From positions 1 to 58,170 of the IMG/VR virus record IMGVR_UViG_3300010393_000011: a stretch of 58,170 nt of DNA; one strand, written 5' to 3'. The translations under genes were made by a program, and so were the position numbers. The DNA comes from a virus. Lineage: Duplodnaviria > Caudoviricetes. The stretch's first letter is position 1. Each line of letters opens with the position of its first letter. Under the pieces are notes generated by a model. The model had not been told where the DNA came from and did not search any database. It worked only from the letters and a program-made list of their open reading frames with translations. Positions 38,106 to 58,170 of this stretch are shown here, one piece after another.

Positions 38106-38565
38106 CGCATGACCTTTCTGCCTCGAACTTTAATTCAGCTCCAATTTTCCTGATTTCATGGTCCGGGAATGCGAGCAGGTTGTCATAACCTATTGATAGA
38201 AATGGCCGACCAATATTCAGCTTGTAACGGCCATTTTTATCAGACACAATCAGGTCCGGTTTACTTGGATATATCTTATATTTGTCCGGGAATGCGTCGC
38301 GGCCCATTTCCTTCTTAAGATTGTACATATACCTGGCCTGACAATCTCCGCAATCAAACTGTTCTTTCCTCACCCATCCACTGGCATCTTCAAAAGCCCA
38401 ATGTGATGTGACCACGGATTGATAAGCCAGCTTTGTCAAATACGAAAAACTCTTTGGGGTCAGATAGACATCTCGATTCAAGAAACGAACGTGATACCGA
38501 ACGCTTTTGCCACTGCCTTTGCCAACATATTTGGGTTTTCCGATGACAAGTAAGACTTCACTCAC
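38077..38565 (-). CDS. Hypothetical protein
   Basis: Coupled ORF, 162 aa. Confidence 0.55.
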   Translation of the reverse strand: MSEVLLVIGKPKYVGKGSGKSVRYHVRFLNRDVYLTPKSFSYLTKLAYQSVVTSHWAFEDASGWVRKEQFDCGDCQARYMYNLKKEMGRDAFPDKYKIYPSKPDLIVSDKNGRYKLNIGRPFLSIGYDNLLAFPDHEIRKIGAELKFEAERSCGGKEQNRMD

Positions 38566-40373
38566 GCCAATCCCTCCGGAAACAATACTTCTTGTTTGGC
38601 CCGAACTTGCCGCCCGGGCAGATAGTCGATTACTTCGAATGTATTGTGCAGCCGCCCCATGTAGTTGTTGAAAGCCCCGCCGCCTTCTGTGTATCCAAGA
38701 TTTTTGGCCAGATCCTCCCTGCTTATGCTCTCCGGATAGATTTGAATCAGATACTCGAGGATCTTCTGCAGGGGGCCTTGCTTTATGATCTTAAGCCACC
38801 CCTGATGCAGCTCCTCAACTCCGGCAATCGCTTCGACCTCTCCCGCGACTCCTCTTCCTGACTCGGTCAGCTCTACTTTACCGGCTTCCGGATAATCAAT
38901 ATGGCCATTCGACCGGAGCCTGCCGAGAAGATTATTGAATGCCCCGCCCTTGGGGCTGTATTGAGCTTTTGCCGCAACCATTTCCTTGCTGGGCTTATCT
39001 ATTCCGAGCGCCTCGAATGAGGCTATAGCCTCGAGGATTCGCCGTTGAGGATTAGATAGATCAGAACCTTGTGTCATAGCTGAGTTCCTGATGGGCCTCG
39101 GAAATGCTCGTTTCTCAGTTCTCGGTTTGGCGCCACAATCCGCTGTCTCGCACTGCATGATATGGTGCATTTCATTCCCGCGACCGGATGTGAGATTTTC
39201 TATATGCTCAAAAAGCTCTGCAGGCCTTAGAGATAATCCGGTCAGCTTTTCAATATCTTTGAGGATATTGCAGCTTAATAGATGTATCCCCTGCAACTGA
39301 CCTTCAAGTTTTTTAGCTGCACTATCCAGTTCTTCCTGTAGATGCCTGATTTGGCTTTTCTGAGCCTGAATAATCGGCTCATGATTACATGGCACTGGTA
39401 CCTCTTTTTTAAGCAGCGTATTCTCGCGTTTAAGCGAAGCCAGTTCCTTCTTCAGCTCAATCATATCTTTGGCACGCTTCTCTGCCTGATGAGGGATATC
39501 CGCAAGCTTCTCAATCAGTTGCTTGATCTTGCCAGTAGCCTCTGGATGCGTTTCAACATGCTGCGTGCCGATCCTCGGGTGGGATGATTCAACATCACCG
39601 ACTTTAACCAGGACAATATCGTTGACGGGAACATATCCCTGTGAACCCTCATGTATACGGAAGGCCGGACCATATAAGTGAAATTCTCCGGGCTGTAGCT
39701 TCCGGAGCGCCAGGCTCTCTTCCCTTGAAACAAATCCCAGCTCATCAACCGCCCTTTTGCGATCGATATCCTGAATTGTTCGGCCGATCATCTTATTGCC
39801 AAGTTCCGCAGCTGCGTCTTTGTTGAGCTTGGCCAGTCTCTGTGTGGCCATTATTGTACAAATTCCCCGCTTTCGCCCTCGAGTTGCCAGATCTATCACC
39901 GCGGAAGCTGATTCGGCTTTACCCTTTTCAGGACAGATTAAATGTGCCTCATCCAACACAACCAAAACCGGATGCCGGTATCTCCGAGGAGCGCTTATTA
40001 GGGCCTCAGAAAATGCTTTTACATACGCGATTCGCTCATGCTTCTTGAGTTCGTACAGATCAAATATGCAGGATGCATTGAACTCGAGGAGCTTCAATGC
40101 CAGAAGTTTAACTGATTTTAGTTCGGCGGGAATATCTCCACCCTTGCCCGCAATGATATAATCGAATTTCTCCCTGAGTGTATGAAACTCACCTTCCAGA
40201 TCGATTACCAGCTGCTGGATCCTGCCATATGATTGTTCCAGGATCCTCCGAACGAGCCAGGACTTCCCTGCCCCACTCATCGCCTGAATCATAAGCCGGG
40301 TTTCGGTTAATGTTGCCAGATCCAGGGTAACGGTTTTATTATCATGCAATCCGAGATTTATCATCTTTGCCAA
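38562..40373 (-). CDS. HerA/FtsK-like (DUF87) ATPase with coiled coil and C-terminal wHTH-like repeats
   Basis: AMSGAGKS, IDLEGEF, VVLDEAH, RGRKRG, ATQR; two GGAFNN..GRL repeats. Confidence 0.85.
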   Translation of the reverse strand: MAKMINLGLHDNKTVTLDLATLTETRLMIQAMSGAGKSWLVRRILEQSYGRIQQLVIDLEGEFHTLREKFDYIIAGKGGDIPAELKSVKLLALKLLEFNASCIFDLYELKKHERIAYVKAFSEALISAPRRYRHPVLVVLDEAHLICPEKGKAESASAVIDLATRGRKRGICTIMATQRLAKLNKDAAAELGNKMIGRTIQDIDRKRAVDELGFVSREESLALRKLQPGEFHLYGPAFRIHEGSQGYVPVNDIVLVKVGDVESSHPRIGTQHVETHPEATGKIKQLIEKLADIPHQAEKRAKDMIELKKELASLKRENTLLKKEVPVPCNHEPIIQAQKSQIRHLQEELDSAAKKLEGQLQGIHLLSCNILKDIEKLTGLSLRPAELFEHIENLTSGRGNEMHHIMQCETADCGAKPRTEKRAFPRPIRNSAMTQGSDLSNPQRRILEAIASFEALGIDKPSKEMVAAKAQYSPKGGAFNNLLGRLRSNGHIDYPEAGKVELTESGRGVAGEVEAIAGVEELHQGWLKIIKQGPLQKILEYLIQIYPESISREDLAKNLGYTEGGGAFNNYMGRLHNTFEVIDYLPGRQVRAKQEVLFPEGLA

Positions 40374-41866: not shown

Positions 41867-42085
41867 TCAATCTATAATTTCACCGCTGCTCTTTCGCGCC
41901 GCAGCTTTGGCTTCCTCTATACTCTTGGCGATACCTGAATGCAGCCTGCCCTTATGGTCGCGATAATCCCACTGCACCCTTAGCTCATAGTTGAAAAGTG
42001 CGGAGCGGAATTCCTCATAGGCGAACTGGCCCCGCTCATGCGTGGTTGTGCAGCCGTTTTTATTCAACTTGCTTTGACTCATCAA
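41867..42085 (-). CDS. Hypothetical protein
   Basis: GGAGG RBS; QWDYRD..G.L.SG.A motif. Confidence 0.6.
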   Translation of the reverse strand: MMSQSKLNKNGCTTTHERGQFAYEEFRSALFNYELRVQWDYRDHKGRLHSGIAKSIEEAKAAARKSSGEIID

Positions 42086-45000
42086 TAGACCTCCTTCAAA
42101 TTTCCGCTTGCGGTATCATAGATGATTTTCTGCTCGCACTGGTCGGCCAGTTCTTTGCGATGGGTGACCAGCAGGAGCTTATCCAGGCGGCCCAGCTGCA
42201 TGCGTTTCTGAAGCATGTTAAATAGTGCCGAGGCTCGGAAGTCCCGCAGGGCTCCATCGCATTCATCCACCATGGCGAACTTGGGCTCAAAGCCCGACTG
42301 CTGAGCGCGATAGATTGAGACGGCGGCCTGCATGGCCACAATAAAGGGCACCTTCTGACCGCCCGAGAGGAGCCTGATTGGTCGCTCCCCCTGCTCATCG
42401 ATCACAATGATATCAAGCGTCTCAATCTGGCCTTTTCCGGAGGCCTTATCCTTGACCGTGTCAAAACGAATTTGCCAGGATGACCCGAACTCGGAGAGCA
42501 GATCGTTGGCCAGGGATGATATCTGCGGCAGTGCATTTTCCAGAAGCAGGGCAGGAATACCGTTGCGACTGAAAGCAGTCTGCAGCAAAACATAATCGGA
42601 ATAGTCGGCCTTCTTGGAAGCGTGCTTCTTCTCAGTTTCCTTAATTCGCTCCTCCAGCTCGAGCAGTTCCTTTATCTTTGCTTCTGCCGCGGCTTTGGCC
42701 TTCTCAGCCTCCAGAATCCGGGTCTCCTGGGATTCAATACGAGACTTTATTATTCTGATATCATGATTGCATTCACGAATTTCCTCCGCGAGATGGATGT
42801 CGATCTGTTTCTCGAGCTCATCACGTTTTGCTCTTAGCCCGCTCATCTGCTGGGAGAATTCCGGAATGAGCTTATCATACTCTCCCTGCTGGTACGCCAG
42901 AGATTCTCGGGCTTCCTTGAGTTGATCGGCCAGCTGTTCGGCTCGGGCCAGGGCTATGTCCAGACTCGATTTGGCAGGGCCCCAATCAGTTTTCCGGGCC
43001 TTCTCTGGAAAGCCTTCATAATCCAGGCGCAGTACCTCTGTTTCCTCTTCCAGCTTACTCAAAGACTTGCGCAGTGAATCGAGTTTATCCTCGTGCTCAC
43101 CCTCCAGGCTCTGTTTCTCTTTGGCCAGGTCCTTCAGATTATCTACCAGGGGCTTTAGGCTTTTGGAAGCATCAACCGCCGAGGAAATGAGCGGGCACTT
43201 GGAGCAGAGGTCGATGACCTCGGCGATCAGTTCATCTGTGAAGGATCTCCATTCCTGGACATCACCGCTGTAGAACTCTTTTGCGTTAAATTGCTGGCAG
43301 GGCACGTTCTCGAGCCTTTCGGCCAGCTCCTCATTCTGTTTGATCTCGGCTTCAGTGCGCTGAATCTGGTCCTCAATGTTTTTCAGATTCGATGCTTGCA
43401 GGCTCTCAACCTGGCGCAGGTCGCGCCGGGCGGCAGAGATTTCAGCTTCCTTCTTTTCGATCCGTGCCTTTAATTCCTGAGCCTCCTTCGAAAGCTTCAC
43501 CATTTCCTCGATCTTATCCCGGCGCTCGATTAAGTCCTTGTCCTTCTGGATGTCAGCATAGAGTCTCCCGATTTTCATCTCCTGCTTGGCCTTCCAGGCC
43601 TGGAATTTGTTTTGAGTTCTGATCTTCCTGGTGGACAGTTCCTCCAGCTGCTGATCGAGGTCGGCAATCTGCTTTTTAACAGATTCCTGAGTTGCGGCCT
43701 TTTTCTCGCGCTCCTTCAATTTAAACTCGAGCTCCTCCAGTTCCGATGTTGCCAGGAACTTATTAGCCTTATGCTCGGCGATAGCCTTCTGCTGTTTCTC
43801 AAGCTCAGCATCAAACTCCGGTATGAACTCCAGGGCCCGCCGATCTTCCGAAAGCTTCGCTTCCGTTAAGCTGATTTCATTCTGGAGGGCCTGGGCGGAC
43901 TCCTTGGCCTTTTCAGCAATCGCCTGATACTCCGTGAAACCCAAAAAGTCGTAGAACATGTCTTTCAGCTCAGCATTGGTCTTGTTAATCAGACCGTTCG
44001 TACCCTGAACCTGGTAGACGCCTTGCTGAAATAATTCGGGCGAGCCGAAGAGCTCCAGCACGACCCGCTTATAGGAAGGTTTTTTGCCATCATTCAAGGT
44101 GGTCCAGTCTTCGCCGTCCAATCGATAAGCGTAATATTCAGCTTTGCCGCGGACCCCATCCACTACCAGAAGGAACATATAATCAATTCCGTCTATGCTG
44201 ACCACCAGCTCGCGGCAGGAATCCTCCAGCCTGAAGTGGTCGGAGAGCTTGGCGTTCCAGTTCAGGCCGTCATAGTAAAAGCTGAAGGGATAGGGATGCA
44301 GGTTGTCAAAAGTGGTTGATTTTCCGGCTCCGTTATCTCCGTCGAAGAGAATCATGTCGCTGTTGAATTTTTCAAAGTCGATCTTGATCTCATCAGTCCA
44401 GGTGATCCCTTTGGAACCGCGCAGCCTGAGTGATTTGAGACGGATGGTGCCCCGGGCGGTAAGCCCGGCGTCATCCTCCAGCACCAGCTCGCTCTGTAGC
44501 TTGTGGAGCTTGGCCGGTATGTCTTCCGCCAGATCTGTTTCGGTCGTCTCTGCCCAGGCCTTCAGGCGCTCCAGATTCGTTATCGCTTCGTTGATGACCT
44601 CGCACCTCTGGCGGCTCTGAGGTTTGATGATCTTCTCGAATTTGACCGAATTGGGGTGCAGGTCGTTCCAGCTCAGCCATTTCTTGATATGATCTTCATT
44701 GACCAGGTCCTTGGCTTCCGGGGGCATGTGCAAGCGGATCCTGGTGTCGGCCTGATTGCAGCCATGGGGATTGAAGTCTGGAAAGCCGGCCGGGCCGCCG
44801 GTCTTTTTGTCCAGAAATCTAAAAGGCTGGTCGTCGCTGTCTTCGGGGTAATAAATGAGATCAAAATCGACCATGGCCGGGAACGGTGTCGGAATCCGCT
44901 CCAGCTGCAGAATCTCATGCCGATTGACTTCGGCATAGAGCACGGATTTCTGCTCCTTCTCACCCCAGTTATGAGGGAAGGGACTGCCCGAATAAAAGAT

Positions 45001-45723
45001 GTTCTCCCCGATCTGCTGCGGCTTATGAATGTGACCGAGGCAGTTTATGACTGCCCCGGCCTCTCGGATGTCGGTGGTAGATATAACAATATCACCACCA
45101 GTCATAACCTGGCCGGTCGGTGTTTCACTGCCATAGACAGTAAAGTGGCCGAGAAGTAAAGGGATGAATTCGGGATGGCGAGTCGCGAACCGTGCCATTT
45201 CGGCTCGGAATCCCAGAAACAGTTCTCGCACCAAACCGGCCGCTTCAACATCAGCCCGATCCGGAGAAAGATCAAGACCTCTGGACTTCGCCCAGGTCAT
45301 AAGCCCGGACTTGGTCACTCCAGGAATAGGAAATACTGCAAGATTTCCCCGCTCTTTCCTTTTTATATCGATGCACATCGAAAAAAGCTCCGGCCTGTCC
45401 AAAACAAATATCTGCCTCTCGGTATGCAGGCTCTTGAAGATATTCAATGAACCCGGCCGATCATGGGAAGGTGTGCCAGGTATCATGTAAACGTCCTGGA
45501 GCATTGCCAGGCGCCGAATATATCTGATCACCATATACAAGGGGCTGTTTTCATTAACCGCAACTTCCCCGTCCCAGATATCGCCGGGAATAACTACAAT
45601 GTCCGGCTCCTTATCTTCTGCGACCTGCAGGGCAAACTCAAAGAACTTTTCGACCTTATCCAGATTATCGCGGCGGGCATGCAGATCGGCAAAGTGGATC
45701 AGCTTCAATTTATTTTCTGCCAT
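42082..45723 (-). CDS. Single-chain SbcD(Mre11)-SbcC(Rad50) nuclease-ATPase fusion
   Basis: ADLH, GDIWD, GTPSHD, GHF, LGHIH; then GDNGAGKST, coiled coil, LSGGQ, VDECDGAL, LVTH. Confidence 0.9.
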   Translation of the reverse strand: MAENKLKLIHFADLHARRDNLDKVEKFFEFALQVAEDKEPDIVVIPGDIWDGEVAVNENSPLYMVIRYIRRLAMLQDVYMIPGTPSHDRPGSLNIFKSLHTERQIFVLDRPELFSMCIDIKRKERGNLAVFPIPGVTKSGLMTWAKSRGLDLSPDRADVEAAGLVRELFLGFRAEMARFATRHPEFIPLLLGHFTVYGSETPTGQVMTGGDIVISTTDIREAGAVINCLGHIHKPQQIGENIFYSGSPFPHNWGEKEQKSVLYAEVNRHEILQLERIPTPFPAMVDFDLIYYPEDSDDQPFRFLDKKTGGPAGFPDFNPHGCNQADTRIRLHMPPEAKDLVNEDHIKKWLSWNDLHPNSVKFEKIIKPQSRQRCEVINEAITNLERLKAWAETTETDLAEDIPAKLHKLQSELVLEDDAGLTARGTIRLKSLRLRGSKGITWTDEIKIDFEKFNSDMILFDGDNGAGKSTTFDNLHPYPFSFYYDGLNWNAKLSDHFRLEDSCRELVVSIDGIDYMFLLVVDGVRGKAEYYAYRLDGEDWTTLNDGKKPSYKRVVLELFGSPELFQQGVYQVQGTNGLINKTNAELKDMFYDFLGFTEYQAIAEKAKESAQALQNEISLTEAKLSEDRRALEFIPEFDAELEKQQKAIAEHKANKFLATSELEELEFKLKEREKKAATQESVKKQIADLDQQLEELSTRKIRTQNKFQAWKAKQEMKIGRLYADIQKDKDLIERRDKIEEMVKLSKEAQELKARIEKKEAEISAARRDLRQVESLQASNLKNIEDQIQRTEAEIKQNEELAERLENVPCQQFNAKEFYSGDVQEWRSFTDELIAEVIDLCSKCPLISSAVDASKSLKPLVDNLKDLAKEKQSLEGEHEDKLDSLRKSLSKLEEETEVLRLDYEGFPEKARKTDWGPAKSSLDIALARAEQLADQLKEARESLAYQQGEYDKLIPEFSQQMSGLRAKRDELEKQIDIHLAEEIRECNHDIRIIKSRIESQETRILEAEKAKAAAEAKIKELLELEERIKETEKKHASKKADYSDYVLLQTAFSRNGIPALLLENALPQISSLANDLLSEFGSSWQIRFDTVKDKASGKGQIETLDIIVIDEQGERPIRLLSGGQKVPFIVAMQAAVSIYRAQQSGFEPKFAMVDECDGALRDFRASALFNMLQKRMQLGRLDKLLLVTHRKELADQCEQKIIYDTASGNLKEVY

Positions 45724-47914: not shown

Positions 47915-48142
47915 CTACCATATTCCTTGACAAATAGGAGTCTTGATATATTTTTAAGAAGGAGCCCGGAGAGGCCATTCTCCGGACTCCGCTTCCTCAA
48001 CCTTCCCCCCTCAAGAAATCACTTCTTATGTGTAAGGATTGGGTATGCTTGTTCATGTTCTTAAATCCAGGTCCGGCTTAGAAGGGCTGGGTCGCATTTC
48101 CCGCCGATAAATTATCCGGAGTTCTTTTATGCGTAAATTCCA

Positions 48143-48385
48143 TCATGCTCTAAGTTCGTTATTCTCCTGCTTAGCGCTATTACCTGATGATCGCTTGATC
48201 TCGCTGTCAGAGGCCTTCGGTGTCATGTCATTCTCGCTTATGACGAGATCGCCATCCGAGTTAATAGTCATTTTTAACCTATTATCTCCTGGCTCGATTC
48301 CTTTTGCTTCAAGCCACCATTTTGGCACATACGCAGCCGTAGGCTGGCTTCCGGCCGAGACATTTATTAATTTTGTCCAATTCAT
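48143..48385 (-). CDS. AbrB/MazE/SpoVT-like protein in the Cro position
   Basis: YVPK......GIEPGD..L.....DG.LVI; start reassigned to ATG 48385. Confidence 0.6.
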   Translation of the reverse strand: MNWTKLINVSAGSQPTAAYVPKWWLEAKGIEPGDNRLKMTINSDGDLVISENDMTPKASDSEIKRSSGNSAKQENNELRA

Positions 48386-48537
48386 ATATTCTCTTTCAAT
48401 CAATAATATATTATTCAAATCATCAGCTACACCCCGATATATAATAATATATTCGGCATTGTCAAGGGCAAATTCCGTTTTTTTTATGGATTTTCTTATT
48501 CTATTTGACAACAACAAGTTAATAGGTCAAATATATT
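48386..48537. promoter_or_regulatory. Divergent immunity promoter/operator region
   Basis: AT-rich; TTGACA on - (48465-48460) and on + (48505-48510); inverted TATTTGAC/GTCAAATA at 48502-48533. Confidence 0.6.
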
Positions 48538-48990
48538 ATGCAAATGGCAGAAAATATTAGAAAGCAGTTTCTAAAGGGATTCGGAGCCCGTCTTTTAAAA
48601 CTCTATTCAGAGTCAAATTTTCGATCTTATGCTCACTTTGCAGATAAATTGCGAGAGACCGGCTTTGAAGTAACGAATGATACTGTTTCCAAATGGATGA
48701 GTAAGGAGCCCAGCGAACCAAGAGCATCGGCTATCGTGGCATTATCCAAAGTGTTGAATGTCTCAGCAGATTATCTATTGACTGGAAAAGAACCAGAGTC
48801 CAAAGATGAGAATTTAGCGAAGTTATTGAAGTATTTAAATGATATAAAAAACCAAGCAAACGATTTATCCGATCCCCGGTTACAGCAGTACGCCAGGAGA
48901 TTTGCGGCTCTTCCTGATAATCTGAGGGAAGCAGCGGAGCAGCTTCTTAGGGCTATGGAGGAGGTAGCCAAGAAAAAGCTGGAAGAATAG
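48538..48990 (+). CDS. XRE-family CI-like repressor without a peptidase domain
   Basis: FG.RL..L, TVSKW....EP, L.VS.DYLLTG; divergent from the early operon. Confidence 0.85.
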   Translation: MQMAENIRKQFLKGFGARLLKLYSESNFRSYAHFADKLRETGFEVTNDTVSKWMSKEPSEPRASAIVALSKVLNVSADYLLTGKEPESKDENLAKLLKYLNDIKNQANDLSDPRLQQYARRFAALPDNLREAAEQLLRAMEEVAKKKLEE

Positions 48991-49173
48991 ATGACCCAAC
49001 CATAGAACCACGATCGGGGATCATTATGTCGAACAAGTCCAATGTGCGGACACGGAAGGACTGCGTTTTAGGGTATGTTTTGTCATTGGCAGTATGTCAT
49101 GCAAATCTTAAAAAAAATCTAAAAACAAGAGTCATTTTGTAATCAAATGAAGATCACTTTAGGGGAGGTTTAG

Positions 49174-49830
49174 ATGAAAAGAATGTCATTTTTTGCAGTT
49201 CTAACCTTGTTTTTAGCTGTGCCCGTTTGTGGCCAGGATTACGCCGCGGAAGACCATCACTATGGTTTCCATTTTGGAGCGGCTTACTCGAATTTCCAGG
49301 ATGACAAGCTGGAAATTGAAATAATAGAACCTGACGATATAATCACTTTCTATCTGGGAGGCAGTTTATTCTTTTACGAAATATTTGCATTGGAGGTATC
49401 AGTCAGCTATGCCAAAGAATCTGTCTACGAGGTCGCTTCCGGAGCAGCTGTCAATTACGGCGACTTTACTCAATTTCCGATTTCAGTATCGGCAAAATTG
49501 TATAATAACCCGGAGGGAGGGAAAGTCCGGGCTTTCCTGGCGGCTGGCATGAGCTATTATTTTCTGGACTTCGACCAAAGTCAGTATCTCACAAATATAT
49601 ATTCTGATGTCTACGGGGTGACCGGAAAAGTAAAAGTTGAAAACGAACTGTCACCTTTTTTTGCAATAGGCATCGATATATTCATCTCCCACAATGCGGC
49701 AATAAGCTCCCAGATCAAATACACTTGGTTAAATCCGAGAGTTACGCTCCCGATCCCAATGATCTGGGATGAGCATCTAAAGGTTAACCCCTTCACTATC
49801 TCCCTGGGATTTTCTCTTTATGGCGGATAA
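49174..49830 (+). CDS. OmpW-like outer-membrane beta-barrel (moron)
   Basis: Signal peptide, amphipathic strands, C-terminal VNP....LG.S.Y. Confidence 0.75.
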   Translation: MKRMSFFAVLTLFLAVPVCGQDYAAEDHHYGFHFGAAYSNFQDDKLEIEIIEPDDIITFYLGGSLFFYEIFALEVSVSYAKESVYEVASGAAVNYGDFTQFPISVSAKLYNNPEGGKVRAFLAAGMSYYFLDFDQSQYLTNIYSDVYGVTGKVKVENELSPFFAIGIDIFISHNAAISSQIKYTWLNPRVTLPIPMIWDEHLKVNPFTISLGFSLYGG

Positions 49831-49891
49831 AACAAGGTGTAATTTGCGAGAACAAATGAGCCAACACAAAACTCTTCAGAAAGGAGTGAAT

Positions 49892-50128
49892 ATGGCAGAT
49901 TTCGAAGTTCGGATCCTTAATCACGACCTGGAACCGATTCAAGGCGTCAGAGTCAGACTGGAATTCACACCACTCACAAGAGGTATGACCGGCGAAGAGT
50001 ACACTGACTCAGACGGGGTGGCAATGTTCTCCGGTTTTGATGAAGGTGAAGTCAATGTCTATGTGGATCACAGCGATTACGGCAGCTATCGATACGAAGA
50101 CGGAGGCAGCATAACAATCACAAAATGA
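49892..50128 (+). CDS. Small beta-sandwich protein (carboxypeptidase-regulatory-like)
   Basis: AAAGGAG RBS; PI.GV.V, YTDSDG.A.F. Confidence 0.6.
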   Translation: MADFEVRILNHDLEPIQGVRVRLEFTPLTRGMTGEEYTDSDGVAMFSGFDEGEVNVYVDHSDYGSYRYEDGGSITITK

Positions 50129-50284
50129 GCAATTCTCTGCTTCCCCGCAGCGGAGACCTGAGGACCGATAAAGGGAGGGAGGCTTTTGCAGGCCTCCCTG
50201 CCGAAGATAGGCAGAAATAATGGATGGAGATTACAAAAGAAGACCGCAAGAAACAGCAATTTCATTTATGTGACGGTGGTAGTT

Positions 50285-50317
50285 TTGACTTGCATTCCCG
50301 CACGAAACTGATAAATT
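50285..50317 (+). promoter_or_regulatory. Possible sigma70 promoter of the five-gene cassette
   Basis: TTGCAT-N16-TAAATT with extended TGn. Confidence 0.35.
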
Positions 50318-50403
50318 GATAACGTGGTGCTGCTGGCTTCAGAGGGAAATAAGAGCCGACTTCTTTTGGTCATCCTGATATTTTTAGAGCTTAGGCATAG
50401 ATT

Positions 50404-51507
50404 ATGAAAAGACTAATTTACATTCTTAGAGACAATAATATTGAATGTCTTCCTAATGAGCGCTTCACACTCGATGTAGAAATGTTTCCAGAATACAGTG
50501 AGGAACCCGTGTTCCCCAAGCAGGTATTATTCGAATCTCCCAAATTGAAAGCCGGAAAGAAATCAGTTCCTGAAGGCGTGCATTCTATGTTTCGATACTT
50601 TCTTGATGGTTCCCAGCGCTCACACCGCGTCATTGATGCCAGTTTCGGGAGTCATTATCTTCCAATATGTGCCGGCCAAATCGGAGTGGCCGTTCTCGAG
50701 AGATTGGATTCTGGCCGCATGGTCCCCCGGAAGGATCTAACCCGAGTCGAAAACATACTTGCAGTTCCCAATGTGATCGGGCAGGATAACGCAAAGGACC
50801 TTGAGCAGAAAATCAACAAGGAAATGTCGAAAAATGATCACTTCCGCATAGTGCGTTATGATTACCAAACGAAAGATGATAAAGATCCCGCAGACCTCGG
50901 AAGAGCGATGATCATCCATGAAATGCAGATGCTCGAATTGCGCACCATTAGGGACATGATCACTAATCAGGCAATCCAAGAGGATAAGATGTTGGCAAAG
51001 GACGGAGGCCTTCAATATCGCGACACTAAAATCAAAGATCTGAATCTCTCAAAAGATGACCTCGTCCAATTGAGAAATGTGATCGGCTTAGCGAAGACAT
51101 TTAAGCCTAACATGACGGTCGGTCAGGGGCGGGGTCGCCAAGATCTTGGCAATTTGACCAAAGGTCTTGATTGGAAAGAACGAACGACTGTCATAAGTCC
51201 AAATAAAGATGAGATAACAGCTCATGGCTGGTGGTACCTTCGCCTTCGACCGCGTGAGAAAGTCTATAGTCCGCTCCAGGGAATCGCCAAAATAGAAGTA
51301 TTTGCCTCTGATGAAGAAAAAGAGAATGATGGGATTGCTGAAGCACGAGCCGATACCATTTCTTCATACGTCTTGCGAGAGCGCAATGTCACTGCTTATA
51401 ATGCTGATAAACGCTGGGCGAGTCATATTTATCCGATATTTTTAGCCGAGACATATTTGCGTTCTTCTTTTCTCAGTCATGAAAGATTTAAAGCAATGAT
51501 TATTTGA
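50404..51507 (+). CDS. NurA-like RNase H-fold nuclease
   Basis: YFLDGSQR, EMQ.LE, AKDGGL, IG.AKTF, WYLRLR, YPI..AE.Y; upstream of HerA. Confidence 0.75.
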   Translation: MKRLIYILRDNNIECLPNERFTLDVEMFPEYSEEPVFPKQVLFESPKLKAGKKSVPEGVHSMFRYFLDGSQRSHRVIDASFGSHYLPICAGQIGVAVLERLDSGRMVPRKDLTRVENILAVPNVIGQDNAKDLEQKINKEMSKNDHFRIVRYDYQTKDDKDPADLGRAMIIHEMQMLELRTIRDMITNQAIQEDKMLAKDGGLQYRDTKIKDLNLSKDDLVQLRNVIGLAKTFKPNMTVGQGRGRQDLGNLTKGLDWKERTTVISPNKDEITAHGWWYLRLRPREKVYSPLQGIAKIEVFASDEEKENDGIAEARADTISSYVLRERNVTAYNADKRWASHIYPIFLAETYLRSSFLSHERFKAMII

Positions 51508-51520
51508 AAGGGGAAATCCC

Positions 51521-53209
51521 ATGCCCGAAAAAGAATGTATCGGAAAGGTCACCGCGACCGAAAGCAAACCAACCACCTGTACCAGCGTTTACTTCTGGCT
51601 AAGTCCGGATGTTATCATTCGCCCCTTTGACCTCGTGAGGATTGGACACATCTCCGGAGATGGAAACAAAAAAAGCTACTCATATGCAATAGTTCGGGAA
51701 CTCAGCTACATCACAGATAGCGTAGGCCACCTGGCAAATTACGTCTCTTCCGATTTCGGTGATATTAATGCGCATCCGATCAATGAACGGCTTGGAACCA
51801 CGATTGCTGAGGCGGATGTTCTCGGGAACAGCCAGAATATCGAGATGCCGATTCGAGACGGTGCGCGTGTAGAATGGGCGGGACCTGAGGAAATTAGAAG
51901 CGCCCTGGGAGTCGAAAATCTTATAAAGCCTATTCCTGGAGGCTATATTCGTACTTCGAACAAAGAGGAAATCCGCATTGATTTCGAGGCCCGATATCTC
52001 GTTGGCCCCGAGGCAGCTCACATAAACATTTCTGGAATCTCTGGTTTGGCAAGCAAAACATCTTACGCAATGTTTCTTTTAAGCGCATTACAGCAACGTA
52101 TGCAAGACGAAGTAAGCATCATTCTATTCAATGTCAAAGGCCCTGATTTGCTGGCCGTTGATCAGCCGAATGCCTCGATGAGTGAGACACACCAGCAGGA
52201 CTGGAGAAAATGCGGTCTTGAACCGCGGCCACTTGAAAACGTCACCTATCTCTATCCCTATGCCAAGCGTCCGGACCGCTTCTTTACTTCAAGCCATGCC
52301 CCCAATGACGTTATTCAATTTCAAATTGAGCAAAACCAGGCTTTCAATTATTACTACGACGTAGAAACATTTAAGGGTGGTGAAGAAGGCAGTGAGACTG
52401 ATGTTGGACGCGATAAGATGTCGCTTCTCTTTTCTGACATTGATGATCCACAATCTACCATGGAAAGCTGTATTCATGAACTCGGAGAGATTCAAGCGGA
52501 GACGTGGGAGAAACTGAGAGAAGAAATCCATGCCAAAACTGAGAAAGGGCAAACCGGACGAAAAGAGATCTCGGTTCAATCCTGGCGCAAATTCAGTCGG
52601 CTAATTCGAACACGAACCACCCATGACATTTTCTCGTCCAATTATTATGGTGAGGACCGGCGCCAAAAGCTCATTGTGGATGCAATTAAGGATTTGAGGC
52701 CCGGAGGAATTCTTGTTGTGGATATCGCTCCCTTACCTGATTATCTTCAATGCTTGGTTTTTGGAGATGTAATCCGAACCGTTTTTGATGCAAAACTCGA
52801 TCTATACGAGAACATTAAAAAAGAAGATTTGGGAAGAGTTGTCATCTTTGCAGATGAATTAAATAAATACGCACCTTCCACATCCGGATCCCGGGATAGG
52901 ACTCTCACCCGCTGGCTTCTGGAAATAACTGAACGAGGACGTTCGCTCGGAGTAGTCCTATTTGGTGCAGAGCAGTTCAGAAGTGCTATTCATTCCCGGG
53001 TGCTCGGAAATTGCAGCACGGACGTATTCGGTAGAACAAATCCTGTTGAGCTCTCGAAGGCCCCAGACTACAGGCTATTCTCGCAATCCAATAAAGCTAC
53101 TGTTACAAGACTCAACCAGGGTCAAATGCTGCTTCAGCATTCTGTATTTAATACTGCATTAATAAAGGTTCGTTTCCCATATCCAGCTTATCGGCAGCTG
53201 CAGAGGTAA
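51521..53209 (+). CDS. herA: HerA-family ATPase
   Basis: N-terminal HAS-barrel-like region, HINISGISGLASKT, FNVKG, FADELNKY, ERGRSLG, GAEQ. Confidence 0.85.
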   Translation: MPEKECIGKVTATESKPTTCTSVYFWLSPDVIIRPFDLVRIGHISGDGNKKSYSYAIVRELSYITDSVGHLANYVSSDFGDINAHPINERLGTTIAEADVLGNSQNIEMPIRDGARVEWAGPEEIRSALGVENLIKPIPGGYIRTSNKEEIRIDFEARYLVGPEAAHINISGISGLASKTSYAMFLLSALQQRMQDEVSIILFNVKGPDLLAVDQPNASMSETHQQDWRKCGLEPRPLENVTYLYPYAKRPDRFFTSSHAPNDVIQFQIEQNQAFNYYYDVETFKGGEEGSETDVGRDKMSLLFSDIDDPQSTMESCIHELGEIQAETWEKLREEIHAKTEKGQTGRKEISVQSWRKFSRLIRTRTTHDIFSSNYYGEDRRQKLIVDAIKDLRPGGILVVDIAPLPDYLQCLVFGDVIRTVFDAKLDLYENIKKEDLGRVVIFADELNKYAPSTSGSRDRTLTRWLLEITERGRSLGVVLFGAEQFRSAIHSRVLGNCSTDVFGRTNPVELSKAPDYRLFSQSNKATVTRLNQGQMLLQHSVFNTALIKVRFPYPAYRQLQR

Positions 53210-53211
53210 AT

Positions 53212-54780
53212 ATGATGTCCTCAAATTCTGAAAAAATGCCAAAGATAGGGGCATTCGTTCTTGAGACCCTAACCACCGGGATGTACACTAATTCTCTTGA
53301 TACGCTTAGGGAATATATACAGAATTCGTTCGATTCGATCCGCGAATCCGAACGAAGCAACAAATTGACATATGGAGCTGGTCGAATAGATCTCACAATA
53401 GATGAAAAGAGCCGAATTCTCAAATTGCGTGATAACGGATTGGGCATTCCTAAAAATGAGGTGAAATCCCGGCTTGTTAATATTGGAATGTCTTCAAAGA
53501 CTATCCAGCATTATGCAGGCTTTCGCGGAATAGGGCGACTTGCTGGAATTGCATATTGCGACAGGCTTATTTTCACAACCCAGGCAAAAGATGAAAACGA
53601 ATTTTCGCGAGTGGTATTTAACTGCCGAGAACTGCGCAACGCTATGTCTCCAAAATTAAAGCAAATTAGCGAATTGGCTGAGGTGATAAATGAGCATGCA
53701 TCTGTCACTAACGAGAAGACACGCAATAGAGGACATTTCTTTGAAGTTTTAATGGAGGGGATCAATGAGGCCGGACAGTCATTTCTGGACTGGAAGATTA
53801 TCGAAAATTACCTCAGCCAGATAGCTCCGGTCGGTCTTGATACACAATCCTTCTATCACGCAGGTGAAATCATTCAATGGCTGAAAAAGCGAAATATCGA
53901 CGTTCCGACGGTGAGCATAACAATCAATGCAGGATTAATGAAGCGCCAGGTTTTTAAACCGTATCGCAAGCTGACATATACGACCGCACAGGAGAAACAC
54001 AAAATACATTTGAAGAAGATACGTTTTTTCCCCGATGACGCTGGACCTGATTCTCCCTTCTGGGGTTGGTATGCTGAAACCAATTGCCCCGGCACAATTG
54101 GAGACGAGAGGGTTGCAGGAATTCGATTGCGAAAAGATAATATCGGCATTGGTATGGCGGAAAATATGACAAAGATCTTTGCTGAAGCTTCTGAAAGCTA
54201 CGCTCGACTCAATAAGTACTTCATGGGTGAGATCCATATTCAGGACCCGAATATTATACCAAATGCAAGGCGGGATGGATTTGAGGAGGGTCCGGAATGG
54301 TTGAAAGTTCGCCAATCGTTGGTTGAGTTCGCGAAGGAAAGAAGCCGAGAAGCATACCATTTATCACAAGCACGTAATTTGGACATTGAGAGGCTGCTTG
54401 GGGCTGCCAAGAGAGAGAAGGAATCTGCTCAAAAGAGAAAAAAGACTGGGTTGGCCTCCAAGGAGGAAAAAGAAAAGGTTCTTGGCAAGCTCGATAGGCA
54501 AATAGCGAAGCTCGAGGCTGCAAAAAAGTCTGATCGAGATGAGAATGAGCGGAAGCAGATAGATCGCACTTATAAAGAACTTCAAAATACCAGGCAGGCA
54601 ATCGAAAACGAAACCCATTATGTGGCTCAGAATCTGAATTCAGCTCTGGATAAAAAGCAGAGGAAAATTATATCTGAAATAATCGGAATTCTTTATGATG
54701 TGTTGGACGATGGATCATTCGAGAAGGCCCGTGCTGCGATCCTGGCAAAATATCAAATCCCAAACAAGAAGAGAGAGTAA
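53212..54780 (+). CDS. GHKL (HATPase_c_3/MORC-like) ATPase with coiled-coil tail
   Basis: LREYIQNSFD, DNGLGI, IG.S.K, GFRGIGRL, GEIH...PN.RRD.F. Confidence 0.88.
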   Translation: MMSSNSEKMPKIGAFVLETLTTGMYTNSLDTLREYIQNSFDSIRESERSNKLTYGAGRIDLTIDEKSRILKLRDNGLGIPKNEVKSRLVNIGMSSKTIQHYAGFRGIGRLAGIAYCDRLIFTTQAKDENEFSRVVFNCRELRNAMSPKLKQISELAEVINEHASVTNEKTRNRGHFFEVLMEGINEAGQSFLDWKIIENYLSQIAPVGLDTQSFYHAGEIIQWLKKRNIDVPTVSITINAGLMKRQVFKPYRKLTYTTAQEKHKIHLKKIRFFPDDAGPDSPFWGWYAETNCPGTIGDERVAGIRLRKDNIGIGMAENMTKIFAEASESYARLNKYFMGEIHIQDPNIIPNARRDGFEEGPEWLKVRQSLVEFAKERSREAYHLSQARNLDIERLLGAAKREKESAQKRKKTGLASKEEKEKVLGKLDRQIAKLEAAKKSDRDENERKQIDRTYKELQNTRQAIENETHYVAQNLNSALDKKQRKIISEIIGILYDVLDDGSFEKARAAILAKYQIPNKKRE

Positions 54781-56195
54781 TGCGAAATATACTCCTTGCG
54801 GAACCCGACTATAGATCGAAATTTCCACCTCTTGGGTTGATGAGATTATCCACGTATCATAAGAGTGAGGGAGATAATGTTACCTTTGTCCGCGGAAGAA
54901 ATCCGGATTTGCGGTCGGTAAATTGGCACCGCATTTATATCTCATCGCTTTACACATGGGAATTGCCGCGCACATTGAAGACGATCAAGTACTATGGCAC
55001 TGCCGTAAATAATCCGAAGGATATCATCGTGGGCGGGACAGCTGTGACTCTTCTTCCACAATACATTCGAAGCAAGACAAATGTAACAGTTATTGAGGGC
55101 CTGCTGGATAGACCAAACATGCTTGGTATAGGATCAAAGGCCATCGCTAAACTCATTCCCGATTATTCTATCATAGAGGCAGTGCCGGATTATGAATATT
55201 TCCCAGCAGATGCTTATTTTACCAAGATCACCAAAGGCTGTATACGCTCCTGTAAATTTTGCGCTGTGCCCATATTGGAAAGAAAATTCGGGTTCTTAAA
55301 GGATCTAAGAAGACAAATTGAAGATGTCAATGAAAGGCATGGGGAGAAGCAGAATCTTGTCGTGATGGATAATAATATTCTTGGTATTGACAGAATCCAA
55401 TCAATCTTCGATGATATAGCAAAGGTCGGCTTTGCCGCAGGTGCAATGAAAAACGGTAAAAAGCGGTCAGTCGACTTTAATCAGGGATTGGACGCGCGCC
55501 TGATTAATAAGGATCCGTCGCTTGCTGAAGGATTAGCCAGTATATGCACTTCTCCCGTCCGACTGGCGTTCGATTTTGTTGGCATGGAACGGCCATATCG
55601 GCGTGCGATTAAGATTCTCAGGCAGAACGGGTTCAATGAATTCACAAATTATATGCTCTTCAACTTCAAAGATGCCCCAGAAGATCTGTACAGACGAATT
55701 TGGATAAATGCGGAACTGAATTCCGAATTGGGAATCAGGATCACCGGATTCCCGATGAGATTCATACCCATGGATGATATAAAGAGAAACCATATAGCTA
55801 AAAAATGGAAATGGAGATATTTAAGAGGCATCCAGTGTGTTCTCTTAGCAACCCGGGGGCTTATAAGTCCAAATCGCGAATTCACCCGGGCTGCTTTCGG
55901 GAGTTCTTTCAATGAATTTCTTGAGATTCTTTCCATGCCGGATAGATACATTATTTACAGGGAGGACTATAGGAATAATGGCGCTGATCAATGGCGCCGG
56001 CTCTTCCGGAGGCTCCGCCCACATAAGAGGGAGGAATTTCTGAATCTTCTCGAAGAGTTAAACAAGAGCTATCGCGATAGAAAAAAACGGATTGCAAAAT
56101 TCAATGGGCTATTTGGAAAGCTGCTGGAGCATTACTATCCAAATGGCGAAACGCCCCAGCGAAAGCCTAAACAAGACAGCCATTTCCAAGTTTGA
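54780..56195 (+). CDS. Radical SAM protein with B12-binding-like N-terminal domain
   Basis: ILL.EP....FPPLGLM.LS, GG...TL, TKGCIRSCKFC, MDNN, DFNQGLDAR. Confidence 0.88.
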   Translation: MRNILLAEPDYRSKFPPLGLMRLSTYHKSEGDNVTFVRGRNPDLRSVNWHRIYISSLYTWELPRTLKTIKYYGTAVNNPKDIIVGGTAVTLLPQYIRSKTNVTVIEGLLDRPNMLGIGSKAIAKLIPDYSIIEAVPDYEYFPADAYFTKITKGCIRSCKFCAVPILERKFGFLKDLRRQIEDVNERHGEKQNLVVMDNNILGIDRIQSIFDDIAKVGFAAGAMKNGKKRSVDFNQGLDARLINKDPSLAEGLASICTSPVRLAFDFVGMERPYRRAIKILRQNGFNEFTNYMLFNFKDAPEDLYRRIWINAELNSELGIRITGFPMRFIPMDDIKRNHIAKKWKWRYLRGIQCVLLATRGLISPNREFTRAAFGSSFNEFLEILSMPDRYIIYREDYRNNGADQWRRLFRRLRPHKREEFLNLLEELNKSYRDRKKRIAKFNGLFGKLLEHYYPNGETPQRKPKQDSHFQV

Positions 56196-56199
56196 TCAG

Positions 56200-56853
56200 A
56201 TGCTCTATATTTTTTTGGATGAAAGTGGAAACTTCGATTTTTCAGGGAGAGAGGGTCGGCAGTATTTTATCATTACGGGCCTGTCTGTTTTCCGCCCGTT
56301 TCCCTGCTTTGAGGAGCTTCTTGAATATCGACATGACTTGTGGGAGTCCGGTCAAGAAATAGAATACTTTCATGCAAATAATGATCAGCCTCACGTTAGA
56401 AAAAAAGTGTTTGAAATTATATGCAAACAATTAGGTAAACTCCAGGCGGACTCAATAATCTTAGAAAAACGAAAAACATACCCGCAGCTCCAGAAGGATC
56501 GCGAGAGATTCTATAAAACATTTCTCGGCATTCTGCTCAAATATATCCTTAAGGGTCATACCTGGCATAATATAAAGGATATAGTAATGATACACGATCG
56601 ACTTGCACCAGAAAAGAGAAAGAGGCTCTCGGACGCGATAAAGGATGCCCTCTTTTTTTGGGCGGACGACGTCGACGGCAATTATTATATAAATTTCATC
56701 CAGTCCAAAGCCAGCTTTCTTTTGCAGATTGTGGATTATATAAACTGGGCTATAGCCCGAAAATGGGAATATGGCGATCAGAGTTTTTATGACCTAATCC
56801 AGCCGTGTATTAAGAGTGAACGTGATATCTTCAACTGGTGGAAGTACAAATAA
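56200..56853 (+). CDS. DUF3800 family RNase H-like protein
   Basis: YIFLDESG, YFHA, LQIVDY..WA; start reassigned to ATG 56200. Confidence 0.85.
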   Translation: MLYIFLDESGNFDFSGREGRQYFIITGLSVFRPFPCFEELLEYRHDLWESGQEIEYFHANNDQPHVRKKVFEIICKQLGKLQADSIILEKRKTYPQLQKDRERFYKTFLGILLKYILKGHTWHNIKDIVMIHDRLAPEKRKRLSDAIKDALFFWADDVDGNYYINFIQSKASFLLQIVDYINWAIARKWEYGDQSFYDLIQPCIKSERDIFNWWKYK

Positions 56854-56856
56854 AAT

Positions 56857-56905
56857 GGCCCTGACTACCTTTCGGGTGCCACAAAGGGCAAACATCATCA
56901 GGGCC
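56857..56905 (+). ncRNA. Candidate DUF3800-associated structured RNA
   Basis: GGCCCTGA/TCAGGGCC outer stem enclosing two small hairpins, 3 nt after the stop, no U-tract. Confidence 0.5.
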
Positions 56906-57048
56906 GGAACAATAACTTTTCAATCAGTACGACGTCGTCTATATATAATAACGGAAATAAATCCAAATGTTCAAGTATTTTTTAGTAATTTTTTATGAAA
57001 TTTTTATGGAAAATGCAAGTCTTTGAAAGAAAGCAGGTTGACTGATAC

Positions 57049-58170
57049 ATGGCCCGGCCATACAAACGCGGAAATAAGTGGTATATATACGTCACCCATA
57101 AGGGTCAGCGCGTCCGAAAGTCTATCGGTACCTCCAAGGCCCTCGCCCAGAAATATCAGAGCATGATTGAAACAGATCTGATGCGGGGAGAATTGAAGCT
57201 GGATGTATCCGATTGCTCAATCGAAAGGCTTTTCACCGATTACCTGGAGTACTCTGCCATCAATCATCGGCCCTCCACCACCAGGCGCTATGAGGGGGCA
57301 ATCAGATATTTCCATATATTCCTCGGTCACTTTTATCCCCGGGTAAAACGGGTTGGCCAGCTCAGCCTGAATGTCTTCGAAAAATATAAGCATTTCAGAC
57401 GCACCACCGATCCAAAGTCAATCAATGCTCAGCTCTCCGGGGACATGAGATATCCAGCCAACTGCACCGTCGCGAAAACCAAAACCGTCAATTATGAAAT
57501 CAAAACCCTGAAGTCAGTTTTTGAATTTGGAATCAGGAGAGGCCTGTGCAGCGTAAATCCGGCCAGGGGGGTTTCGCTTCTCAGGATTGACGATGCTAAG
57601 CAGCCGCGTTTTTTGTCCGGAGATGAATGTCAGATTTTACTGGAGAATGCCGGTAGTGAATACCCCATTTATTTCACCTTATTAAATACGGGGCTTCGCC
57701 TGGGGGAGCTTCTGAACTTGCAGTGGAGCGATATCAATTTCTCACGGAAGGTGCTTATGGTGCGGGGCAAGAGCGACTGGAAACCCAAGGCCGGAGAAAG
57801 AGAGATACCACTCAATCAAGGGGTCTTGAATTTGCTTAGAGATATCAAGCCCAAACGGGCCCGGAAGTCCGATTATGTCTTTCAATTCAAGCGCCGGGAC
57901 ACGGCCGCTCGGATATTGAGAAAGCGCCTGGCACGCCTCTGCAGAGAGCATGGTCTTGAGGCTTTTAGCCTGCATGATCTCAGGCATACTTTTGCCAGTC
58001 AGCTGGTGATGAACGGGGTCGATCTGGCAACTGTTCAGCAGCTGCTCGGGCATCGGGATATCCAGACCACCATGATCTATGCCCACCTGGCGCCCGACCA
58101 TTTGGCCGGGGCGGTCAGAAAACTCGATTCCATTCTGCCACAAATCTGCCACAAACGGGGTAAGACCTAA
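57049..58170 (+). CDS. int: Tyrosine integrase
   Basis: N-terminal arm-binding region, TGLRLGEL, HDLRHTFAS, LGH, TMIYAH. Confidence 0.96.
   Translation: MARPYKRGNKWYIYVTHKGQRVRKSIGTSKALAQKYQSMIETDLMRGELKLDVSDCSIERLFTDYLEYSAINHRPSTTRRYEGAIRYFHIFLGHFYPRVKRVGQLSLNVFEKYKHFRRTTDPKSINAQLSGDMRYPANCTVAKTKTVNYEIKTLKSVFEFGIRRGLCSVNPARGVSLLRIDDAKQPRFLSGDECQILLENAGSEYPIYFTLLNTGLRLGELLNLQWSDINFSRKVLMVRGKSDWKPKAGEREIPLNQGVLNLLRDIKPKRARKSDYVFQFKRRDTAARILRKRLARLCREHGLEAFSLHDLRHTFASQLVMNGVDLATVQQLLGHRDIQTTMIYAHLAPDHLAGAVRKLDSILPQICHKRGKT
58134..58155 (+). repeat. Tandem 11-bp repeat, putative integrase arm-type sites
   Basis: TCTGCCACAAA x2 at the 3' end of int. Confidence 0.55.

Follow-up and report, generated by a model that had tools for sequence, protein, structure and literature searches.

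This work concerns a cassette of four genes, here called A to D, that lies near the right end of the viral DNA held in IMG/VR as record IMGVR_UViG_3300010393_000011, positions 1 to 58,170; this whole stretch of 58,170 nucleotides (nt) is referred to as the window. All four genes are on the plus strand. Gene A (50404-51507, 367 amino acids (aa)) encodes a NurA-like nuclease of the bacterial HerA-NurA type, and gene B (51521-53209, 562 aa) a hexameric ATPase of the HerA/FtsK type. They are followed by gene C (53212-54780, 522 aa), whose product is an Hsp90-like GHKL ATPase made of N and middle domains and a long C-terminal helical region, and by gene D (54780-56195, 471 aa), which encodes a radical S-adenosylmethionine (SAM) protein; this has a Rossmann domain of B12-binding-like type at its N-terminus and a basic, helical domain at its C-terminus. 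A fifth gene, E (56200-56853, plus strand, 217 aa), codes for a DUF3800 protein and is regarded here as a neighbour, not as a member of the cassette; its start is an ATG within a longer, TTG-started open reading frame (ORF) at 56092-56853. A preliminary description of this DNA had singled out five co-oriented ORFs, and these are indeed present, with gaps of 13, 2, -1 and 4 nt, the start of gene D overlapping the stop of gene C by 1 nt.

The window represents a tailed prophage, whose integration site is a tRNA-Met gene. Matches to PHROGs include a tail protein, tape measure, large terminase, portal, head protein, DnaB-like helicase and an SbcCD-like protein, and the prophage ends with a tyrosine integrase gene (57049-58170, plus strand; Phage_integrase, 7e-35). 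On the full contig of 82,399 bp this integrase is complete (373 aa) and the tRNA-Met gene follows 26 nt further on, so the cassette sits just inside the right end of the prophage. Upstream, a gene for a cI-like helix-turn-helix (HTH) protein (48538-48990, from the Pfam scan) precedes the cassette, in agreement with the cargo slot between repressor and integrase that had been proposed. The region is also richer in AT than the structural genes, as stated earlier, its G+C content (GC) being 0.41-0.46 at 48-57 kb and 0.47-0.59, mostly 0.50 or above, at 1-31 kb; the values at 32-42 kb are likewise low (0.43-0.50). The claim of a promoter-like site belonging to the cassette fared less well, since 16 consensus sites occur between 48900 and 57200 and shuffled sequences give 15.4 +/- 3.9. 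None of these sites, in the consensus scan of that interval, is a sigma-70 site in the 275 nt that precede gene A (50129-50403, plus strand), the presumed promoter region, and a terminator scan of 48900-57200 gave hits at chance level only. The cassette sequence is identical across the DNA contigs of four runs, with no variants and no joints, and no RNA run was listed among those that contain it.

The nuclease assignment of gene A comes from a profile of 13 homologues, whose sole match in the PDB is the NurA chain 7f6d_H (E 1.6e-4, positions 171-302 only), and searches with the single sequence against Pfam, PADLOC, NCBIfam, PHROGs and PDB returned no match. Residues D68, E178, D200 and H341 are among those invariant in the homologue alignment and would be the catalytic ones. 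The family is represented by 916, 571 and 223 sequences at E <= 1e-3, 1e-10 and 1e-30, respectively, among 1.84 billion, and the NurA-like gene adjoins HerA in every locus where it was found (18 + 14 loci). Gene B is a HerA protein (PDB 7f6d_B, E 3.6e-36), with a Walker A motif at 172-181 (GISGLASKTS) and Walker B residues D445/E446 invariant in 13 homologues, and its PADLOC matches are weak (mad8, 3e-6; HerA models, 3.9e-4 to 5.8e-3). The locus thereby holds what characterizes a HerA-NurA pair, namely a HerA-type ATPase with intact Walker motifs and an adjoining NurA-family gene with conserved acidic and histidine residues. The likeness to the HerA-NurA of Deinococcus radiodurans (PDB 7f6d) extends to both components, matched by B and A, and to the adjacency of the genes. 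In contrast to that system, the pair in the window is mobile, patchy and fixed to a GHKL-radical SAM pair, its protein A is too diverged for the Pfam NurA model, and it is presumed to serve immunity rather than the repair of the chromosome.

Gene C matches HATPase_c_3 (9.2e-9, Pfam), and its profile finds the N-domains of HtpG/Hsp90 as the closest PDB entries (4.1e-17). The structural model, with a predicted local distance difference test (pLDDT) score of 84.2, agrees with this, in that the closest Foldseek matches are the N and middle domains of Hsp90, TRAP1 and GRP94 (9e-17, template modelling (TM) score ~0.46-0.49), followed in the model by the helical region at 361-514. The Bergerat site is intact, with N38, D41, D74, G76, G78 and G103-G108 invariant. 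As for a relation to MORC or paraMORC proteins, the GHKL motifs of gene C are intact and its nearest relatives, by the sequence profile against PDB and by the Foldseek comparison, are Hsp90/HtpG. Relatives in IMG/VR were detected by an alignment-based scan, the single-sequence scan having given none.

In gene D, the cysteines C154, C158 and C161 of a CxxxCxxC motif are invariant in 29 homologues, and the motif together with the fold matches, a partial triose-phosphate isomerase (TIM) barrel, places the protein in the radical SAM superfamily. Its Pfam scores are below the cut-offs, 22 bits for Radical_SAM (cut-off 29.5) and 20 bits for B12-binding (cut-off 32.1), and it matches phrog_9298 (6.7e-39). 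The model (pLDDT 81.8) is closest, by Foldseek, to MgmA (4.6e-9), TsrM, AprD4, CysS, OxsB and TokK (to 1e-5), then to MiaB/RimO, with TM scores of 0.40-0.50 and identities of 10-14%. Gene D therefore resembles the class B radical SAM enzymes (MgmA, TsrM, CysS, TokK, OxsB) and AprD4 in having an N-terminal Rossmann-like domain and a radical SAM barrel with CxxxCxxC; it differs from them by a distinct, basic C-terminal domain and by an N-terminal domain that forms the GHKL-binding face in the complex model described below. As for a possible binding of cobalamin, the fold resembles cobalamin-type MgmA/TsrM and the predicted domain has a weak B12-binding score, and AprD4, which is not known to be B12-dependent, is also among the top matches. 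The protein has five cysteines only (154, 158, 161, 256 and 353), none of them N-terminal, which excludes a second cluster of the MiaB type, and a net charge of +26. Two identities were considered and rejected: that of a MiaB/RimO methylthiotransferase, given the missing N-terminal cysteine trio, NCBIfam scores of 18-20 bits against cut-offs above 250 and no TRAM match, and that of a viperin-like enzyme, as no viperin occurs among the Foldseek or PDB-sequence matches listed and PADLOC gives no match. The family is large, with at least 3,786 clusters at 90% identity reaching E <= 1e-5 among 8,000 candidates. It also has short relatives (~270-330 aa, 25-32% identity, phrog_9298 type) at about 62 IMG/VR loci (L126-L179) that are without GHKL, a few of them beside SNF2-like helicases (L127, L130, L135, L149 and L163); these short phage proteins may be self-protection or counter-defence enzymes.

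Genes for the GHKL and radical SAM proteins are adjacent in most loci, and the two proteins are predicted to bind each other. The complex model gave a score for interaction prediction from aligned errors (ipSAE) of 0.68 (runs 0.71, 0.62 and 0.68), the best of three controls reaching 0.00, with pLDDT of the partners at 86 or above and 100% contact agreement between runs. Of solved complexes, 58 of 80 attain the benchmark mark for this score, and of mismatched pairs 2 of 110, which serves as a rough guide only, since our own alignments were used here. The predicted interface joins residues 194-253 of the GHKL protein, in its middle domain, to residues 1-3, 33-50, 77 and 131-135 of the radical SAM protein, in its B12-like domain. 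The model thus supports binding between the two, and if the predicted interface is right, the so-called B12 domain of gene D may act at least partly as a docking domain. The preliminary description had made the GHKL ATPase a partner of NurA-HerA in sensing and degrading DNA; by adjacency and predicted binding it groups with the radical SAM protein instead.

The conservation of the four-gene set was followed in searches seeded with the radical SAM protein, which covered 12 genome, 80 metagenome and 80 viral loci, 8 duplicates being removed. Long relatives (at least 200 bits) occur in 97 loci, many of them cut by contig ends; GHKL lies within two genes in 41 of these, and NurA plus HerA lie within five genes in 16-17. 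All four genes are present in 27 distinct loci, namely the window, four contigs of metagenome-assembled genomes (L003, L004, L005 and L008), G543/L234, 7 metagenome contigs and 14 IMG/VR contigs. The order A-B-C-D is kept in 25 of the 27, the exceptions being L047 (D-A-B-C) and L023, where extra genes are inserted. The same set comes back when the search is reversed: the loci seeded with HerA in IMG/VR, 18 in number, comprise 14 with A-B-C-D, 2 that are cut after B, 1 fragment and 1 with a methylase instead, and the radical SAM gene is adjacent in 26 of 30 loci seeded with GHKL, the other four being the far ends of DISARM-like radical SAM operons (2), a cut locus and a fragment. The neighbourhoods of the GHKL and radical SAM genes are thus conserved, and the alternative that had been raised at the outset, of independently stacked morons, does not describe them.

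These loci span at least two bacterial phyla, that of the window and that of L003-L008, in addition to viral and metagenome contigs, and their flanks differ, with aspartyl-tRNA synthetase in L004, SelB in L234, and a PHP-SMC-type ATPase plus a Schlafen/AlbA_2 protein in L005. Other neighbours of A-D or of the radical SAM gene are a second radical SAM system (L078) and a DUF1156 methylase (L048). The cassette is rare and its distribution patchy: among 285 genomes of the window's phylum a single one has a close radical SAM relative, and none of 4 other genomes of its genus does; the NurA-like gene was found in 6 of the 401 genomes sampled from the phylum to which L008 belongs. Some individual arrangements may be mentioned. 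L078 carries D-C-B-A on one strand and, on the opposite one, a DGQHR-like gene with a radical SAM gene. In L031 a convergent pair of GHKL and a protein of family f9 comes after A-B-C-D, and in L025 two ORFs (184 + 362 aa) make up the GHKL gene of an otherwise intact A-B-C-D, for which a frameshift, a pseudogene or an assembly error are possible.

The radical SAM family (29-62% identity to the protein of the window) also ends at least five other gene sets, making at least six partner sets with NurA-HerA. One, a three-gene variant, has a ~300-aa protein of the PP_RS20740 family (f9) between GHKL and the radical SAM gene. Another combines an SNF2 helicase with a 140-aa protein and two 340-aa paralogues, and here GHKL frequently comes next to last-placed radical SAM, on its downstream side. 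A third begins with a UvrD-like helicase, DrmA (5.8e-172), DrmB (3.1e-58) and a NERD-helicase and closes with radical SAM and GHKL genes; the others contain PbeA (3.6e-221) with PbeC/DndD-like (9.9e-173), and a DGQHR protein that is DndB/DpdB-like (2.3e-47). The f9 protein (L001:4123-5019, and relatives) has a weak NF047698 match and an atlas score of 0.97. On a FastTree phylogeny of 82 radical SAM proteins the partner types are interleaved, with 38 label changes where the minimum possible is 7 and the shuffle mean 52.8, and even in the 60%-identity clade of the window's own protein NurA-HerA, SNF2 and GHKL-f9 contexts alternate. This interleaving points to the radical SAM protein, usually with GHKL, as a portable module placed in varied translocase/nuclease chassis, several of which are known from systems that discriminate self by means of DNA modification. 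The notion that there are orphan GHKL-radical SAM pairs, as a restriction-modification-like asymmetry would have it, was discarded, because nearly all pairs have a helicase/nuclease partner set close by.

A second comparison comes from a sister branch of NurA-HerA loci (L192, viral; L235/G560; L236/G356), which lacks GHKL and radical SAM genes and has, directly after HerA, an N6_N4 DNA methylase of 411-436 aa (Pfam 1.2e-8 and 7.1e-8). These loci hold the same NurA-like and HerA-like families in the same order as the window, with identities among themselves of 23-50% for A and 31-55% for B and hidden Markov model (HMM) scores of 200-580, and the L192 methylase is 42-44% identical to those of L235 and L236. 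The difference from the window is what stands after HerA, GHKL and radical SAM genes in the one case and the methylase in the other. A large protein precedes NurA in the sister branch, with a weak Eco57I match (24 bits, below the cut-off), and L235 has an SNF2 helicase too; this unnamed set of three or four genes resembles a restriction-modification-like system in its own right. In L023, moreover, the genes for HerA and GHKL are separated by one for an Eco57I/N6_Mtase protein. That a methylase and the GHKL-radical SAM pair alternate in one slot beside one nuclease-motor pair is the strongest argument for the latter as a modification, i.e., self-marking, arm. DNA methylases lie within the fetched flanks in 5 of 103 radical SAM loci (L023, L048, L106, L060 and L010), as surveyed with a one-motif filter followed by Pfam, a stricter two-motif filter having missed methylases that Pfam confirmed; by the motif test, no ORF of the window carries a methylase motif.

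Since the preliminary description did not recognize the gene combination, the locus was also compared with named defence systems. PADLOC-DB v2 (2023) has no model that matches A, C or D, B matches mad8 and HerA models only weakly, and in full-text searches of the open-access literature no description was found of the gene set or of a GHKL-radical SAM pairing. The same holds for the gene set in the accessible parts of PMC10853773, PMC2292703, PMC3226654, PMC4158269, PMC10250203 and PMC13662399 and of the preprints bioRxiv 10.1101/2025.09.30.679545, 10.64898/2026.09.30.754977 and 10.1101/2023.03.30.534895, and the MORC/paraMORC paper of 2008 (PMC2292703) does not contain the word "radical". We therefore treat the A-D cassette, provisionally, as unnamed.

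The nearest precedent is MADS (mad1-mad8), where, according to the accessible part of its description, N6-methyladenine (m6A) tells self from phage DNA and an ATPase-nuclease module, MAD7-MAD8, is present (PMC13662399). The cassette is comparable as a candidate for self/non-self discrimination by a DNA mark with an ATPase-nuclease module, B being a weak match to mad8, but it has four genes and not eight, and a radical SAM protein with an Hsp90-like ATPase where MADS has its m6A methylase; A, C, D and E match no mad model, and no methyltransferase, kinase or OLD-like MAD3/MAD4 is found here, so membership in MADS was rejected. The Sir2-HerA and DUF4297-HerA systems (Gao Her) were rejected as well, the partner of B being NurA-like, with no Sir2 or DUF4297 match. 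DISARM, Dnd-Pbe and Dpd are related to the cassette through radical SAM homologues found in operons with DrmA/DrmB, PbeA/PbeC (DndD-like) or DGQHR (DndB/DpdB-like) genes; those systems use methylases, phosphorothioation or 7-deazaguanine and not this radical SAM family, and the window is without their partner genes. Membership in DISARM in particular is contradicted by the absence of Drm matches among the window proteins, Drm genes occurring only at other radical SAM loci. Prokaryotic MORC/paraMORC proteins, Tiamat and other Hsp90-like defence ATPases resemble the product of gene C in being GHKL ATPases whose genes lie next to helicase, nuclease and modification genes, as far as the available portions of their descriptions go (PMC2292703; Tiamat preprint), whereas gene C is nearest to Hsp90/HtpG, lacks a fused nuclease and has no PADLOC match, Tiamat included. 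Tiamat itself, an Hsp90-like ATPase fused to DUF3684 and a PD-(D/E)xK DUF3883 nuclease, was rejected, as gene C has no such Pfam or PADLOC matches and a helical C-terminus. Finally, Ophion is a different, viperin-related radical SAM system, with PHP and phosphoribosyltransferase partners according to the accessible part of its preprint (bioRxiv 10.1101/2025.09.30.679545).

Taking these observations together, genes A to D very likely form one functional unit, and this unit is probably an anti-phage or anti-plasmid system, a view based on its place in a cargo slot of the prophage, its mobility and patchy occurrence, the defence-type genes near it, the modular exchange of partners and the nuclease-motor pair. 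How it would work can be proposed with less assurance. The explanation we favour, while placing its chances slightly below even, is a defence similar to restriction-modification, in which GHKL and radical SAM proteins mark resident DNA and NurA-HerA degrades DNA that is unmarked. The cassette would be carried as prophage cargo, as a horizontally mobile set of four genes, in which the HerA-like hexameric ATPase and the NurA-like nuclease would make up the arm that translocates and degrades DNA. The Hsp90-like GHKL ATPase would bind the N-terminal domain of the radical SAM protein, both together forming the discriminating arm and filling the operon slot that is held by a DNA methyltransferase in the sister clade. 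The ATPase would load or position the radical SAM enzyme on DNA, the enzyme would place a non-canonical covalent mark on resident DNA, i.e., chromosome and prophage, and incoming DNA without this mark would be degraded by NurA-HerA. That the radical SAM enzyme might modify DNA had been suggested in the preliminary description, and the supply of a DNA mark is the reading of gene D best supported by the methylase in the sister-clade slot and by the DISARM-, Pbe/DndD- and DGQHR-type settings. The strongly basic character of the protein counts in its favour, and MADS, with methylation and an ATPase-nuclease module, provides a precedent by analogy.

Several points weigh against this marking scheme. 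The score of the C-D complex is the model's own confidence and not a measurement, and the fold relatives of gene D act on proteins, small molecules or RNA, none of them on DNA. Methylases can escape the survey made for them, since it relies on a motif filter. A recognizable nuclease is missing from several partner sets (SNF2 with f2/f4; GHKL with f9), and f9 could itself be related to methyltransferases, an atlas lead only (Methyltransf_35, rank 11), so that a scheme with the radical SAM protein as the modifier and its partner as the restriction part may be too simple. Furthermore, there may be DrmA/DrmB-type sets that have no methylase by nature, as the ARMADA abstract suggests, and hence a missing methylase does not force the radical SAM protein into the role of modifier.

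The best of the competing explanations, although we consider it unlikely, keeps the defence function and makes the radical SAM protein an effector or a maker of signals: GHKL would sense a phage cue and activate the enzyme, which would convert a nucleotide or damage phage nucleic acid in the manner of viperin or Ophion, and NurA-HerA would clear the DNA. Viperins and the OpnA protein of Ophion act so, as far as the accessible part of the preprint shows (bioRxiv 10.1101/2025.09.30.679545), and Hsp90-like defence ATPases are discussed as sensors in the available part of the Tiamat preprint. The radical SAM protein is, besides, common to at least six partner sets, and a module shared among varied NTPase partners is often the effector in defence systems. 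What speaks for a mark instead is that the fold of gene D is of the B12-domain class B or MiaB type, with no viperin among the Foldseek matches listed, that the sister-clade slot holds a DNA methylase and not an effector, that DGQHR (DndB/DpdB-like) and DndD-like partners belong to DNA-modification machineries, and that a nuclease effector is already supplied by NurA-HerA.

Still less probable is an involvement of the cassette in the phage's own DNA metabolism, such as end resection, recombination, repair or packaging-related processing, with no part in immunity. In archaea and Deinococcus, NurA-HerA carries out the resection of DNA ends, and 7f6d is the closest solved relative of the pair; the phage also encodes an SbcCD-like protein, the cassette is present on 14 IMG/VR contigs, and spore photoproduct lyase, a radical SAM enzyme of DNA repair, is a weak fold match of gene D (4fhf, E 4.4e-3). 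Against these stand the position of the cassette in the lysogeny/cargo region between repressor and integrase and not in the replication module, its occurrence away from phage genes (beside aspartyl-tRNA synthetase in L004 and SelB in L234), its absence from the four other genomes of the genus that were searched, and the exchange of its radical SAM protein among DISARM-, Pbe-, DGQHR- and SNF2-type sets.

Gene E would have to be added to the unit if the cassette were, as initially described, a system of five components, which we regard as highly improbable. Its DUF3800 assignment is clear from Pfam (1.5e-11), PADLOC holds a DUF3800 model that it matches (DUF3800_VII, 3.4e-9), and it follows gene D after 4 nt in the same orientation, with nothing like a terminator in between. 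Yet it is A-D alone that recur together elsewhere: DUF3800 is found in 0 of 179 loci seeded with the radical SAM protein and in 0 of 47 seeded with HerA or GHKL. The gene downstream of D varies between loci, and E has a single homologue in IMG/VR (L226, 32% identity), placed 302 nt upstream of an integrase gene with no A-D nearby, from which we conclude that E is a separate, integrase-proximal gene. The PADLOC label presumably refers to retron type VII, which has a DUF3800 effector; this identity was rejected, since gene E is flanked by the radical SAM and integrase genes and no reverse transcriptase match was found among the proteins scanned, a scan of which a search for noncoding RNA was not part.

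That the four genes are independently acquired neighbours with no joint function is hardly credible, for although prophage cargo slots gather unrelated genes, of which E, the OmpW-like and the Ig-like genes are apparent examples, A-D recur in 27 loci with differing flanks, in at least two phyla and on viral or metagenome contigs, with tight or overlapping gene boundaries and with reverse searches recovering the same set. The two upstream genes just named encode an OmpW-family outer-membrane beta-barrel protein (49174-49830, 2.6e-8) and a small Ig-like/CarboxypepD_reg-like protein (49820-50128); both are located between the cI-like gene and the cassette and are likely lysogenic-conversion cargo. 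Elsewhere in the prophage, two ORFs overlap almost completely on opposite strands (48129-48560, plus; 48143-48517, minus) between the early-region genes and the cI-like gene, and an ORF at 42082-45723 (minus) encodes a protein of 1213 aa with SbcD-like N-terminal and SbcC-like C-terminal matches, an apparent fusion. Matches to large-terminase families occur in two ORFs, a strong one at 29804-31228 (minus; 5.3e-154) and one at 38562-40373 that is restricted to the N-terminal third (8.2e-21).

Returning to the marking scheme, it can be carried further, to a broader proposal that is possible but doubtful. The radical SAM enzyme and its Hsp90-like ATPase clamp would write a new DNA modification by radical chemistry, e.g., C-methylation or another C-H functionalization of the base or sugar, and this would be the self mark not only for NurA-HerA but also for the DISARM-like, Pbe/DndD-like, DGQHR and SNF2 machineries, with the short phage homologues countering it. 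Self-marking would then have a third route, beside the marks made by SAM-dependent methyltransferases and those of the Dnd/Ssp and Dpd pathways. It is a realistic possibility that the mark rests on chemistry of an entirely new category. Even if the radical SAM protein proved to be an effector, the A-D cassette would remain a well-defined candidate system. If the marking scheme holds, restriction-type immunity could rely on a radical SAM enzyme where a methyltransferase would otherwise serve, with an undiscovered DNA modification as the implication. The DISARM-like and Pbe-like loci without a modification gene would be explained, the Hsp90-like defence ATPases would gain a concrete partner and role, and new enzymes would become available for DNA-modification chemistry, while one biochemical result would annotate thousands of genes now called hypothetical, given the size of the family and its attachment to several defence chassis.

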